From positions 128,001-192,000 of the forward strand of contig JBDRRF010000076.1 of the NCBI GenBank assembly GCA_043825875.1: DNA of 64,000 nt, in the 5' to 3' direction. Below the pieces are notes generated by a model. The model worked only from the letters and a program-made list of their open reading frames with translations. It was not told where the DNA came from and made no database searches. This document shows, piece after piece, positions 44,222 through 52,585 of the stretch. The position numbers and the translations under genes are program-made. Position 1 is the first letter of the stretch. Every line of letters begins with the position of its first letter. The stretch is from Pseudomonadota bacterium. Lineage in GTDB: Bacteria; Desulfobacterota; Desulfobacteria; Desulfobacterales; RPRI01.

Positions 44222-44297
44222 TCCCCAGTAGCTCAGCAGGTAGAGCAAGTGGCTGTTAACCACTTTGTCCGCGGTTCGAGTCCGTGCTGGGGAGCCA
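44222..44297 (+). tRNA. tRNA-Asn(GTT)
   Basis: 76-nt cloverleaf TCCCCAG...CTGGGGA-GCCA; anticodon loop CTGTTAA; GGTTCGAGTCC T-arm. Confidence 0.97.
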
Positions 44298-44305
44298 AAC
44301 AAATC

Positions 44306-44343
44306 AAGGGCTTAGATAAGTTTTAAATCTAAGCCTTTTTTTA
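44306..44343 (+). terminator. Element-supplied tRNA terminator
   Basis: AAGGGCTTAGAT...ATCTAAGCCTTTTTTT. Confidence 0.7.
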
Positions 44344-44363
44344 TTCCCCACGTTATTCCCCAC
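44342..44363 (+). repeat. Integrase arm-type sites (left)
   Basis: TATTCCCCAC twice, 12-bp period; the same pair is at 52386-52407. Confidence 0.75.
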
Positions 44364-44450
44364 ATTTTAACTTGAAAATAAAAAAAGGCGGATGAAATCA
44401 CCCGCCCCCTTAAATTCTTTCAAAAGCCTTTCCGGATCTTTACGCTTATT

Positions 44451-45478: not shown

Positions 45479-45522
45479 GGGTCCTTCCAGAGGTCTTTCG
45501 ATATTAGGGGTAATTCGCACCC
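45479..45522 (+). other. cos-like site B
   Basis: GGGTCCT-N17-ATTAGGGGTAATTCGCACCC. Confidence 0.6.
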
Positions 45523-45579
45523 GTCTATTTTTCTACATGTGATGATTTTTCATAAGTACCTAATACCATGACATAATCA

Positions 45580-45933
45580 TTAATCCCCAAATTTAAAAAA
45601 ACCCAGATCATCATCTGGATCATCATCAACGTCATCATCCGGATCATCATCAAAGCCAAATTTGTTTATATTTACAGATAGTTCAGGATAATCATAAACA
45701 AAATCTATACACGAATTATTTTGTTTTGGCTGTTTCCGGTTTAACAGAAAGCTTTTGCGGCCCCACTCCTGCAAAGCAACTTCAAGATCAATTTTCTTTA
45801 CATTTTTTATATTAACAATAGAGTGGCTTAACTTGCCGGATTTAATCGCGGCGGAGATCCTTTGCCGTGATACTCCTATCAGCCTGGCAAATTGGCTGTT
45901 GGTTATAAAGATTCTATCTTTTTTTCGTGGCAT
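45580..45933 (-). CDS. Small-terminase (Nu1/Rpp)-like winged-HTH protein with acidic tail
   Basis: TNSQFARLIGVSRQRISAAIKSGKL...KIDLEVALQEW; lies between two cos-like sites. Confidence 0.6.
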   Translation of the reverse strand: MPRKKDRIFITNSQFARLIGVSRQRISAAIKSGKLSHSIVNIKNVKKIDLEVALQEWGRKSFLLNRKQPKQNNSCIDFVYDYPELSVNINKFGFDDDPDDDVDDDPDDDLGFFKFGD

Positions 45934-46014
45934 GGCATAACTTTTAAAAACTGCTGTTGTTTTTTCTTTAAAATTACAACCCGATTTTGTAACTTTGTGT
46001 CTAAAAAAAGGGCA

Positions 46015-46058
46015 GGGTGCGAATTACCCCTAATGGAAAAAAACTTTTAGGAGGACCC
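46015..46058 (-). other. cos-like site A (upstream of the terS-like gene)
   Basis: Minus strand GGGTCCT-N17-ATTAGGGGTAATTCGCACCC; identical blocks to site B, different spacer. Confidence 0.6.
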
Positions 46059-46071
46059 GCACCTTTTCCGG

Positions 46072-46818
46072 TTAACTTGCGCTTAAAGTTTCAAGGTATT
46101 GGTCATGCAATTCCGGTTGATCATGTATAACGGCACGAACAGCCTGTGCCATTGACATGTTATGTTCCGAAGAATACTGATTAACCGCTTCCATAAATGG
46201 CTCTGTCGTATGTTCTACCTTTGCCATAGGTTCACTCTTTGGCGCCTTGGCTTCATCTATCAGGTTGTTAACGTATGATTCATGCAGATCCGGGTTTTCT
46301 TCTGACACGGCACGAACAGCCTGTGCCATTGACAAGTTATGTTCTGAAGCATACTGATTAACAACGTCCATAAAAGATAGTTTGGTTTCTGTCTGGACTG
46401 AAGCTTTGCCTTCCTCTTTTTGTTTGAGACAGATATGATCCGTCCAAAGTTTCGGATATAGCTCTTGACATCTAAGCGTTGCTACGCCCTTTGATTGTTC
46501 TTGGTGTTCCCACTGATACCTTGAAACAGCCGCCTCAAAAGTCAAAGGGATTCCACCCGGGACACCTTGCTTGCCTGTATCCTTTACTTCTTCAGGCTCA
46601 ACGGCTGCATCTGTGCTTATTAAATGGTTAAAATAACTCTCACCGTTTGGGAATTGTTTCTGAAGCTCTTTATCGCGGAAAAACTCACGATCTGCACTTA
46701 TTTTTAGCAGTAATTCTGACCCTTTAATCTCGCTCGGTTCCCCATTTTCCAGAATATGCCGATAAAAGCTTAATGCTTCCATTGTGTTTTCTGCAGGACT
46801 CAAATTATTATCCATCAT
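46072..46818 (-). CDS. Hypothetical protein with 2-3 helical repeats resembling a phage scaffold C-terminus
   Basis: FMDVVNQYASEHNLSMAQAVRAV..NPDLHESY and FMEAVNQYSSEHNMSMAQAVRAV..QPELHDQY. Confidence 0.7.
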   Translation of the reverse strand: MMDNNLSPAENTMEALSFYRHILENGEPSEIKGSELLLKISADREFFRDKELQKQFPNGESYFNHLISTDAAVEPEEVKDTGKQGVPGGIPLTFEAAVSRYQWEHQEQSKGVATLRCQELYPKLWTDHICLKQKEEGKASVQTETKLSFMDVVNQYASEHNLSMAQAVRAVSEENPDLHESYVNNLIDEAKAPKSEPMAKVEHTTEPFMEAVNQYSSEHNMSMAQAVRAVIHDQPELHDQYLETLSAS

Positions 46819-47789: not shown

Positions 47790-47957
47790 CCTTCTTAAGA
47801 CCTTCTTAAAAACATACTTATAATACCTTCTTAGGGGGGAATTTTTTCCCATGTTTTGGAAAAAATCTCCCATGTTCAGGGAAAATTTTCCCGTCATTAC
47901 GGGGAATTTTTTCCCATGCTCTTTTTTGATCTTATTTATTACAGGGAATTTTTTCCC
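47790..47957. repeat. Putative replication origin with five iterons
   Basis: GGGAA-N4-TTCCC-type 14-mers at 47837, 47858, 47879, 47902 and 47944; CCTTCTTA x3 at 47790-47833. Confidence 0.8.
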
Positions 47958-47968
47958 ATAAAAAAGCA

Positions 47969-48685
47969 TCATACCGCCACCCGATCTCTTAACTTTTGGT
48001 TTAAATAACCCGGCTTCCAATGCTTTTTTGGAATAAGAAAAACCCGCCAAACTCTTTCGCCTTCATAGGTATCATATGGTTCAATTAAAAAGTTCTTTTG
48101 AAGGCTTTTTATAGCATCCCCCACACTTCGCCTGTTGATTCCGGCAAATTCAGCTAACCGCCCAATTTCAGCACTACACAACTCCCAGCGTCGTTTTGCA
48201 AAACGCTCTTTGAACTCAAGGTTATCATATTCAACGTTCTCATCTTCTTCGGCATCATAATATGAGAAATATCTCATTACTGGATAAAGTGCTTTTGCTG
48301 TTGGTTTGAGTTCTGACCATGTGCCGCTTCTAATAATCCCATTATAAAAGAAGAACGACCGGCCATTTTCACCCTTTTGAGGAAATTTCAATTTATAGTA
48401 CTTACCCCGTTTTCCGTGCCGGGTCAGAAAATACTCCCATGTAAACCCAGGAAAACCGTCAAGGTCTTTAATACCTTGCCGTACGGTTTTAATATCTAAG
48501 CGCGATAGTGCAGCAATTGTTTCTTGACCCGGAAATGCTTTACCGTGTTCATCACAATGACAAGCAATTACAGGAAGAACCGCCTTTGCTGCTGTTGATA
48601 TATTTGACCAGTTCATATTCTCGTTCCATCTTTTATCGAAACGAAAAAACAGCGTCCAATCAATATCAGCCGAAAAATGATACAT
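47969..48685 (-). CDS. Replication initiator-like protein with tandem winged-HTH domains
   Basis: WSNISTAAKAVLPVI...AFPGQETIA..TVRQGIKDL and WSELKPTAKALYPVM...LAEFAGINRRSVGDAIKSL; adjacent to iterons; ATG 48685 after TGTGAGG. Confidence 0.75.
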   Translation of the reverse strand: MYHFSADIDWTLFFRFDKRWNENMNWSNISTAAKAVLPVIACHCDEHGKAFPGQETIAALSRLDIKTVRQGIKDLDGFPGFTWEYFLTRHGKRGKYYKLKFPQKGENGRSFFFYNGIIRSGTWSELKPTAKALYPVMRYFSYYDAEEDENVEYDNLEFKERFAKRRWELCSAEIGRLAEFAGINRRSVGDAIKSLQKNFLIEPYDTYEGERVWRVFLIPKKHWKPGYLNQKLRDRVAV

Positions 48686-48725
48686 TATTATCGCCCTCAC
48701 AGCGCAACCGCCCCACAAGAAGTAA

Positions 48726-48928: not shown

Positions 48929-49126
48929 TTATGCACTCAACGACTTTTCAGGATCAATCCGGTGTGAGTCTATAAAAGACTCAATATCTTTAAGCCGGTA
49001 TCTGACAGAACGCCCGATTTTAATAAATGGAAGTCCACGGCTCATAAAACGATCATTTCGTAAAGTGAATACGCTTTTACCGATAATTTTTGCTGCTTCT
49101 TTTTCGTTGATAATTCCTAAGCTCAT
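48929..49126 (-). CDS. AlpA/excisionase-like HTH protein
   Basis: INEKEAAKIIGKSVFTLRNDR...GLPFIKIGRSVRYRLKDI; RBS AGGAG. Confidence 0.88.
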   Translation of the reverse strand: MSLGIINEKEAAKIIGKSVFTLRNDRFMSRGLPFIKIGRSVRYRLKDIESFIDSHRIDPEKSLSA

Positions 49127-50403: not shown

Positions 50404-50460
50404 TTGAGGGAAGCTGGCAGGACATTTCCAGCTTATCGGCCCGTCGGCCTATCCCTCAAA
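50404..50460 (-). ncRNA. Structured RNA motif (int-alpA-like), full copy
   Basis: UUGAGGGA/UCCCUCAA stem; UAGGCC-GACG-GGCCGAUAAG; AGCUGG/CCAGCU hairpin with loop GUCCUG. Confidence 0.65.
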
Positions 50461-51072: not shown

Positions 51073-51162
51073 GATAATAATATACCTTTTTTTAGTATCA
51101 AATCAAGATTTATTTTTTATCGTTTACATTTGCCGCTTCTTATCGGCCCGTCGGCCTATCCC

Positions 51163-52332
51163 TCAAACTTCGTTTGCTGCTTTAACCTTTGATGTTTTGT
51201 TCGCTGGCTTGTTTATTATATCCCCTGCAAGCGCTGAGGCTCTTTTCAATGCGTCATCTCGCAAGTGTGCATACCTTTGAGTCATTAGCGGGCTCTTATG
51301 AGTCAGAAGCCTTTGCAAGGTGTATAAGTCAACTTGCCCAGAGCTTGCCAACACAGACGCATAAACATGACGGAGCCCATGCATCGGCCTAAATCCAACA
51401 GGAAGTCCAGCCTTGTTTCGGATACGGTCAACGCTTTTTCTATTCAAAGTAGTTAAATGAGATCCTTCCCTTTGCCCTGGGAAAATCCATCCATTACTTC
51501 CTGCTTTTTCTATTTTTTCTAATACAGCTAACGCAGAGCCGTTTAAAGGGATACTCTGATCTTGCCCGCCCTTTGGGTTACGGATTGTAATAAAACCCCG
51601 CTCAAAGTCAATGTCCTGCCATTTTAACCGGAATATTTCGCCCCGTCTCATGCCTGTATAAAGTGCAAGTTTCATAATACTTGCCGTTGTCTGATCTTCA
51701 TCTCTCTCTAAAACAGCCAGTAAAGATTTAATCTGATATTCTGTTAGATCTTCTGTTGTTTGGTTGTTCAATCTTGGGATTTCAATTTTAAAAGTAATAG
51801 GAGAAGTCTTGCCCTTTTTCACGCCATAATTGAGAGTCCGGCGAAGGATTTCAAGCACCCTTGCTGCTGTTGTCTTATGTCCCTTTTTTAATAACCCCAA
51901 ACGGAGCCGATCAACATCAAGCGGAAGAAGTTGACCCGGTTCTTTATCGCCAAGCACCTGCCTTATGTGAACATCGAATTTTCTTTTCTCCGCATTTATA
52001 ATTTTATTGTATGGATTATTTTCACAGTATGAATCCCAAAGTTTCGCAATAGTCCATCGGGTATTTACAGCTTCCTTCCTTGCCTTTTCAACTTCTCTTT
52101 TTTCTGTATTTGAAGTTTGATTCCCTTCAATTTTTTGTGCCCGGATACGCGCTGCCTTTGCAGGAGTCATATCATCTTGGAATTGACGCCCCACTTTTTC
52201 ATCAATTGCTTTCCCTGCTTTCCGATAACGGATATAATAAATCCTTTCCGGCCGGCCTGTAACTATTCCCTTGCTTTCAATATAATATACTCCAGGATAT
52301 TTTGTCTTGATTCGTAAAAATGATTTTGGCAT
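51163..52332 (-). CDS. Tyrosine integrase
   Basis: TGMRRGE, HGLRH, LLTHKSPLMTQRYAHL; N-terminal arm-binding domain; ATG 52332 after AGAGG. Confidence 0.95.
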   Translation of the reverse strand: MPKSFLRIKTKYPGVYYIESKGIVTGRPERIYYIRYRKAGKAIDEKVGRQFQDDMTPAKAARIRAQKIEGNQTSNTEKREVEKARKEAVNTRWTIAKLWDSYCENNPYNKIINAEKRKFDVHIRQVLGDKEPGQLLPLDVDRLRLGLLKKGHKTTAARVLEILRRTLNYGVKKGKTSPITFKIEIPRLNNQTTEDLTEYQIKSLLAVLERDEDQTTASIMKLALYTGMRRGEIFRLKWQDIDFERGFITIRNPKGGQDQSIPLNGSALAVLEKIEKAGSNGWIFPGQREGSHLTTLNRKSVDRIRNKAGLPVGFRPMHGLRHVYASVLASSGQVDLYTLQRLLTHKSPLMTQRYAHLRDDALKRASALAGDIINKPANKTSKVKAANEV

Positions 52333-52348
52333 TTTAAACCTCTTTTTG

Positions 52349-52407
52349 TTCCCCACACTACACAATAATTATAACCACTGCTTTTTATTCCCCACACTAT
52401 TCCCCAC
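52349..52407 (+). repeat. Integrase arm-type sites (right)
   Basis: TTCCCCAC at 52349; TATTCCCCAC at 52386 and 52398. Confidence 0.75.
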
Positions 52408-52532
52408 ACATAAATTAAATATACAGGTAATAAAAAGTAAGTCAATAAAAATAATACTCAATAATAATCTATTATTTCAAGGTATTTAATGACATAAATA
52501 AAAAGGAAGGTAAATTAAGGTAAATAGCTTAA

Positions 52533-52585
52533 AAGTGGCTGTTAACCACTTTGTCCGCGGTTCGAGTCCGTGCTGGGGAGCCAAA
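52533..52585 (+). repeat. att repeat (duplicated 3' part of tRNA-Asn)
   Basis: Identical to 44247-44299; lacks the 5' acceptor strand and D-arm. Confidence 0.95.

Follow-up and report, generated by a model that had tools for sequence, protein, structure and literature searches.

Among the PICIs of Gram-negative bacteria, which according to the available text of PMC6092414 are recognized by a conserved integrase/regulator/replication gene order, flanking att repeats at a site that prophages never use, absence of structural and lytic genes, unidirectional transcription, and excision, replication and packaging induced by a helper, and are "typically" 12-15 kb in size, the closest counterpart of the locus described here is EcCICFT073 of E. 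coli. The same text reports that both cos sites of EcCICFT073 are functional, that deletion of cos1 lowers transfer and deletion of cos2 raises it, and that cos2 alone supports transfer; in the available part of PMC6739421, RppA promotes cos1 only, and cos2 goes unmentioned in the available part of PMC9026076. In E. coli PICIs, a second cos that functions and yet raises transfer when deleted has been a loose end since 2018. We located the lambda-type sites of CFT073 at L038:22529 (+) and 23339 (-), where they enclose a 144-aa gene that is RppA (R21, T22, L51 and the length agree), and the deletion primers in the supplement of PMC6092414, as available, match this pair as cos.1 and cos.2. The word "orientation" is absent from the available main texts of PMC6092414 and PMC6739421 (Figures S1 and S5, which are images, may show it), "inverted" is absent from the available parts of PMC6739421, PMC9026076 and the two supplements searched, and the available part of PMC10111431 holds nothing on cos orientation. 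Our literature search returned nothing that discusses how the two cos sites of a PICI are oriented, their inversion, or the cos motif of the present locus; the facing orientation, the natural inversions, the recurrence across phyla and the cos family were not found in print.

The window, by which we mean the whole 64,000-nt stretch of DNA that was analyzed, carries CO dehydrogenase/acetyl-CoA synthase-like genes, which suggest a Desulfobacterota-like host, and contains an 8.3-kb att-bounded element integrated at tRNA-Asn. Two cos-like sites, A and B, lie inside this element, whose features are as follows (window coordinates).

44222-44297, + strand: tRNA-Asn, its 3' half overlapped by the att repeat
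44247..44299, + strand: att repeat copy 1 (53 bp), overlapping the tRNA-Asn 3' half
45479..45485, + strand: site B cosQ-like heptamer GGGTCCT, inverted; 3' of the enclosed gene, the cos2 position
45503..45522, + strand: site B cosN-like 20-mer; predicted cohesive end 45508-45520
45580..45933, - strand: 117-aa protein with TerS-type HTH N-terminus and acidic low-complexity tail, between sites A and B
45977..45982, - strand: GGGTTG motif, candidate cosB or leader element, 32 nt past site A
46015..46034, - strand: cosN-like 20-mer of site A; 46029-46017 is the predicted 5' cohesive end (13 nt), from the RcCronus alignment
46052..46058, - strand: site A cosQ-like heptamer GGGTCCT; 5' of the wHTH gene, the cos1 position
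46072..46818, - strand: 248-aa protein with two copies of a head protease/scaffold C-terminal domain (weak match to the C-terminus of phrog_976, head maturation protease, E 0.0015)
47831..47959, no strand assigned: three 22-nt repeats just 3' of the initiator gene, candidate origin iterons
47969..48718, - strand: HTH_36 replication-initiator-like protein (Pfam/PHROGs profiles)
48929..49126, - strand: AlpA/excisionase-like HTH_17 protein (Pfam/PHROGs profiles)
51163..52365, - strand: tyrosine integrase (PF00589, E 4.7e-30)
52533..52585, + strand: att repeat copy 2 (53 bp)

The element is a PICI-like satellite. Its gene order (integrase, AlpA-like HTH_17 protein, HTH_36 initiator with downstream repeats) is that of a PICI with the initiator replacing the primase, att repeats flank it, phage structural and lytic genes are absent, and transcription is unidirectional, the main ORFs all lying on the minus strand with the exception of a 54-aa RHH gene. 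Its size falls outside the typical PICI range, and the excised circle computed from the att repeats would measure 8286 bp. Further genes encode an HTH antitoxin-like protein and its partner, a coiled-coil protein, the RHH protein and a 164-aa protein without assignment. Among 13 ORFs scanned against Pfam and PHROGs there was no terL, capsid, tail or lysis gene, the protease/scaffold-tail domain of the 248-aa protein being the only such match. This repeated domain, which no Pfam family fits, matches the C-termini of longer proteins that are encoded between portal-like and capsid-like ORFs in same-order genomes, as read from translations, and the 248-aa gene occupies the same position as the gene before cos1 in EcCICFT073, which is a protease-tail fragment too. 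The tandem helical domain (window 46072-46386) also turns up at the C-terminus of various head proteases, S49-like ones among them, and in stand-alone genes of satellite-like elements from four same-order genomes. A search for viral relatives of the initiator found none. Two further repeat families were observed: an identical 29-nt direct repeat (window 50432-50460 and 51139-51167) flanks the toxin-antitoxin-like gene pair, and TTATTCCCCACA repeats lie just inside both att ends (window 44338-44364 and 52331-52408), where they are candidate integrase arm sites.

The sequence GGGTCCT-N17-ATTAGGGGTAATTCGCACCC is present at 45479-45522 (+) and 46058-46015 (-), the arms facing each other over a span of 580 bp, which bears out the two inverted sites proposed in an earlier note on this DNA. 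The 20-mer occurs twice in the window with up to three mismatches tolerated and in none of 100 shuffled controls, and a search of the 4.77-Mb genome gave no sites beyond these two. The pair forms the longest inverted repeat in the 35-60 kb part of the window (57-nt arms, 75%), and the longest exact inverted match of the element is 20 nt, a length that 100 simulated elements did not approach beyond 16. The earlier note had set identical blocks against differing spacers; the blocks are indeed identical, but the 17-nt spacers are not unrelated, being the same at 8 of 17 positions, and a non-consensus ATTA before the cosN block is common to both arms. GGGTTG follows site A at +32 and is not found after site B, so that the two sites are alike in cosQ and cosN and unlike downstream.

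The shared spacer positions and the common ATTA would suit a neutral origin of site B as the relic of an inverted duplication or of a captured phage end, the arms being kept alike by occasional conversion, as would the numerous single-site PICIs and an E. coli island (L336) with the same substitution in both cosN copies. We regard this origin as quite improbable, because the blocks of full identity coincide exactly with cosQ and cosN, in contrast to the differing spacer and downstream regions, and because a distant phylum has this layout too, there with another cosN and unrelated genes.

The two sites are very probably real cos signals. A search of IMG/VR with the 16-mer GGGGTAATTCGCACCC returned 35 loci, with GGGTCCT (at most one mismatch) 19-23 nt upstream of the cosN block in 31 of them. 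Phages do carry the motif near terminase genes, since terL lies downstream in 32 of the 35 loci, although many of these matches are self-hits because the terL references were 23 ORFs taken from the same loci; all six of these ORFs that were profile-scanned combine the GpA ATPase and nuclease. A scan of GTDB gave at least 120 matches, of which 80 were fetched, mostly from Alphaproteobacteria, where most of the cos family is located; among the matches listed, terL was found within 1.5 kb in 45 of the 80. The genome of phage RcCronus, whose terL is related, ends in GGGTCCT, 19 nt and then a 13-nt sequence that is repeated at the genome start, and this end is listed as a 13-base 5' overhang in the available part of PMC8601537. 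The RcCronus 13-mer is identical to GGGTAATTCGCAC at 9 of 13 positions, from which we infer cohesive ends at 45508-45520 and 46029-46017. The record ends of KLER1-1 and R4C are uninformative on the cut position; the RcOceanus record ends have no such motif, the 48-nt site had no BLAST match among cultured phages, and no phage with both the exact motif and mapped packaged ends was found. The earlier note's reading of the blocks as packaging signals thus gains from the motif's position directly upstream of terS-terL in many phages and from its alignment with the mapped RcCronus cohesive end. The analysis thereby supplies a large group of gpA phages with a cos signature, its predicted cohesive end being 13 nt long.

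Site A (46014-46030, -) has in addition the score of a T-tailed hairpin resembling an intrinsic terminator, directly after the scaffold-like gene, and read-through into the wHTH gene may consequently be limited. The hairpin, together with weak Cox/HTH_17 matches of the 117-aa protein in Pfam, could be taken to mean that the 20-mers are intrinsic terminators, or operators of the enclosed HTH protein, instead of cos. This is extremely unlikely given the constant distance from cosQ, the dozens of phages in which the motif precedes terS-terL, and its match to a genome end that has been mapped; site A may have a terminator role in addition.

The cosN here belongs to a gpA-phage family other than that of lambda. 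RcCronus (Cronusvirus) and gpA prophages of Rhodobacterales/Acetobacteraceae share with it GGGTCCT, the 19-23 nt spacing and a GGGT...ACCC-type block, and in the prophage family the exact 16-mer precedes terS-terL; unlike the present pair, their cos stands alone, with complete terS and terL genes behind it, and the ATTA before the block here departs from the family consensus. With lambda cos the sites have in common the cosQ heptamer, a similar spacing, a partly symmetric cosN, a T-rich stretch behind cosN and a gpA-type terminase, but lambda has a different cohesive sequence (12 nt versus probably 13 here) and its R3-I1-R2-R1 repeats are not recognized here. The description as lambda-cos-like needs correction for cosN. 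GGGTTG follows cosN in 38 of 102 distinct sites of the family, against a mean of 7.4 and a maximum of 14 in shuffled controls, and 33 of the 38 have it at +30 to +44; here, where it is present after site A only, it is a candidate cosB or leader element.

The gene enclosed by the sites encodes a protein of 117 aa whose N-terminal 60 residues match phrog_57 (TerS) weakly, at E 4.7e-6; for comparison, the value for the AlpA-like protein of the element is 0.088, and the best of 80 ORFs following cos sites of the family scored E 5e-4. RppA matches the same part of the phrog_57 profile at 4e-8, likewise in its N-terminal domain only. A profile built from 12 post-cos N-termini puts the 117-aa protein at the top of 38,196 six-frame ORFs from the genome (E 2.6e-6, with 0.023 for the runner-up), a ranking that is not independent because the 12 were picked for their resemblance to this protein. 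Searches for homologues returned only the protein itself, the ESM Atlas gave only unnamed or generic HTH clusters, a PDB sequence search gave nothing, BLAST against RppA gave no match, and a single-sequence AlphaFold model (pLDDT 42.5) was too poor to be useful, with no Foldseek match at E<=0.001. Like the Rpp proteins, the 117-aa protein has an N-terminal TerS-like wHTH domain and is encoded directly after cos; Rpp proteins are 139-154 aa long with a helical C-terminal dimerization domain and sequence similarity to RppA/B/C, versus 117 aa and an acidic low-complexity tail here. Rpp proteins also bind the TerS of the helper, inhibit packaging of the helper and favor that of the island. Of the small-terminase/Rpp-like gene envisaged at first, a weak TerS-type N-terminus is therefore upheld, and similarity to RppA and a helical C-terminus are not. 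We put the chance that the protein acts in an Rpp-like manner at about even, the label being a weak inference from position and domain.

Its acidic C-terminus and its lack of homologues also fit a passive hitch-hiker, in which the 117-aa ORF would be what is left of a terS after truncation or decay, with helper-type cos sites simply offered to the helper's own TerS-TerL. In support of such a hitch-hiker, 596-bp cassettes of E. coli (L213, L240, L274) keep convergent sites without an ATG ORF of >=60 aa, and the GGGTTG motif of the phage family is present at site A. We consider it unlikely, as 117 codons have stayed open at the rppA position, no helical TerS continuation is evident in other frames, and RppA is itself restricted to the N-terminal domain in its phrog_57 match.

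The convergent arrangement was at first thought unusual, a view that does not hold, since the model PICI EcCICFT073 has the same facing pair. Both loci consist of a protease-tail gene, cos, a small TerS-domain gene and an inverted cos in that order, without terL, and both have the identical cosQ, a cosN shared within the pair and different downstream regions. They differ in cosN family, in span (811 bp versus 580 bp) and in host, which is distant; the element here lacks capsid, decoration and primase genes, has an HTH_36 initiator, measures 8.3 kb, and encloses a protein unrelated to RppA of EcCICFT073 by BLAST and without a helical C-terminus. Six E. coli islands that we examined divide evenly into three with a facing pair and three with a single cos. 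A scan of IMG/VR for lambda-type cos gave at least 129 matches, of which 80 were fetched, and among the matches listed a pair of sites no more than 1.5 kb apart was present on seven distinct contigs, convergent in all seven; these islands are related and do not represent seven independent origins. Between the convergent lambda-cosN sites, L069, L070, L215 and L228 carry a full 180-aa TerL-binding TerS, whereas L213, L240 and L274 carry no gene and have a 596-bp span close to that of the present locus; both kinds, like the present locus, have the convergent pair and a GGT-rich motif past the gene-proximal site. The 596-bp facing-cos cassette without an annotated gene or ATG ORF of >=60 aa was seen in L213, L240, L274 and L334-L336, and such gene-less cassettes would represent packaging without an Rpp or TerS of the island's own. 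In L336 (1760-2355) both cosN copies share a one-base change from the lambda end, which may reflect a different helper or conversion between the arms.

Our preferred explanation, which we consider likely, is that the locus is a packaging module with two entries, carried by a PICI-type satellite that exploits a lambda-type (gpA terminase) cos phage. Upon induction by the helper the element would excise and form concatemers, the helper TerL would cut at cosN to leave 5' ends of ~13 nt, and a normal head would be filled by ~4-5 copies of 8.3 kb. Site A would be the main entry, probably chosen by the 117-aa protein with or instead of the helper TerS, in the fashion of Rpp, and site B a second entry with another downstream region, from which packaging would run in the opposite direction, serving another helper specificity or working without the island protein. 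Bidirectional packaging fits the published genetics; that the second site is beneficial cannot be read from them, as deletion of cos2 raised transfer in E. coli. That same increase (PMC6092414, available text), together with the retention of intact cosQ and cosN in many islands, could mean that site B is a decoy that wastes helper terminase at a cost to island transfer. The ability of cos2 alone to support transfer in the same source marks it as a working entry; we think a decoy distinctly unlikely.

For the two-entry module, the inverted geometry may be tolerated because exchange between the identical cosN blocks, via cohesive-end rejoining or recombination, would flip the gene and keep two whole cos, where direct repeats would delete it. 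As deduced from the geometry, each downstream region would after a flip join an identical cosN and cosQ, so that both sites survive and only the orientation of the gene relative to the island operon would be altered. An inverted partner within 1.5 kb was found at none of the 80 GTDB loci of the cos family (among the matches listed), and direct arrays of 2-4 sites occur on three contigs, which counts against this explanation since direct repeats evidently can persist.

Flipped segments occur naturally in the E. coli islands. The interior of L274 is the reverse complement of the L213/L240 interior, with flanks and outer spacers unchanged and the exchange point inside the shared block that holds cosN. 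The flipped junction was found in 31 of 5426 complete genomes (>=80% of the query covered); seven of the 31 were fetched, five with two intact facing sites and a flipped interior and two with no site passing the pattern. In MSB1_7A, RppA has the same accession as that of CFT073 and lies at the same phoQ site on the opposite strand, and an 813-bp piece aligns inverted to CFT073 at 99.4%. For the RppA-type junction, 68 genomes have the normal form and 15 the flipped one; the 15 do not differ from each other across the junction and probably belong to a single lineage. With flips in both RppA-type and gene-less cassettes, there were at least two events. L274, L334 and L336 are compatible with exchange at cosN, and in L339 the exchange appears 12-23 nt beyond cosN, which suggests recombination.

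The invertible segment foreseen in the earlier note is thus real in homologous islands of E. coli and was not seen at the present locus, where we hold flipping to be possible but doubtful. No joint from a strand change or an excision was present in the contigs of four runs, the probable source run included, although contigs drop rare variants; in the probable source run the element is a single contig of 8291 nt at a depth of 26.5, the flanks being at 27.6 and 27. A shared block of 20 bp is short for RecA-type recombination, and a flip here would for that reason more likely come about through terminase cutting or phage annealing proteins. A broader proposal, which we advance as improbable, is that facing cos pairs are a widespread, unrecognized invertible switch in phage satellites: the helper terminase would cut both sites, the cohesive ends would rejoin in either orientation, the flip would alter both how the packaging-redirection gene is expressed and which way island-specific packaging runs, and two heritable states differing in helper range or interference would result. 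If this were true, two phyla far apart would have acquired or retained the layout, each with a cos family of its own. With cos1 and cos2 facing, the rppA cassette in both natural orientations and the same geometry in a distant anaerobe, the role of the second cos becomes testable in a laboratory system.

Searches for a helper were made in the genome and its relatives. None of four terL Pfam families had a match in the genome, and no helper with the exact cos was found there. The motif was absent from all 60 genomes of relatives of the host, and a relaxed pattern across the class matched in 6 of 400 other genomes, all with one mismatch, the five loci examined being non-phage genes. The variant ATTAGGGGT gave two viral loci, neither with a terL match, and a DNA search of 300 genomes of the order gave short matches only. 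In same-order genomes there are gpA prophages in which cosQ precedes terS, their cosN sequences being different ones, and also satellite-like elements with one cosQ-type site. Among four scaffold-domain elements of such genomes, three have one cosQ-type site and none a facing pair, some of the contigs ending nearby. Two marine runs contain pieces of a relative that is ~90% identical, none of those listed extending across the cos sites. The locus is an indication that satellites of sulfate-reducer-like bacteria, too, engage in piracy of the lambda type.

Several other loci with cos-like sites were noted. A metagenome scan for the cos family gave one locus without terL (L194:1266-2212), a lone site directly after a replication-initiator-like gene and beside a tRNA-like sequence on a 6-kb contig, possibly a minimal satellite. 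Direct cos-like arrays of 2-4 sites without nearby terL occur at L153:1394-2005, L128:1501-2123 and L093:1501-2691; in L153, from Acidovorax, two cosN types (…GCACCC and …GAGCCG) alternate beside a primase-like gene, as might be expected of a multi-helper satellite. L383 (G548:C20:18000-33625) is a satellite-like element that encodes a protease-scaffold protein, a primase and an 886-aa tape-measure-like ORF and has one cosQ-type site, accompanied by a related block, GGGACC…CACCC.
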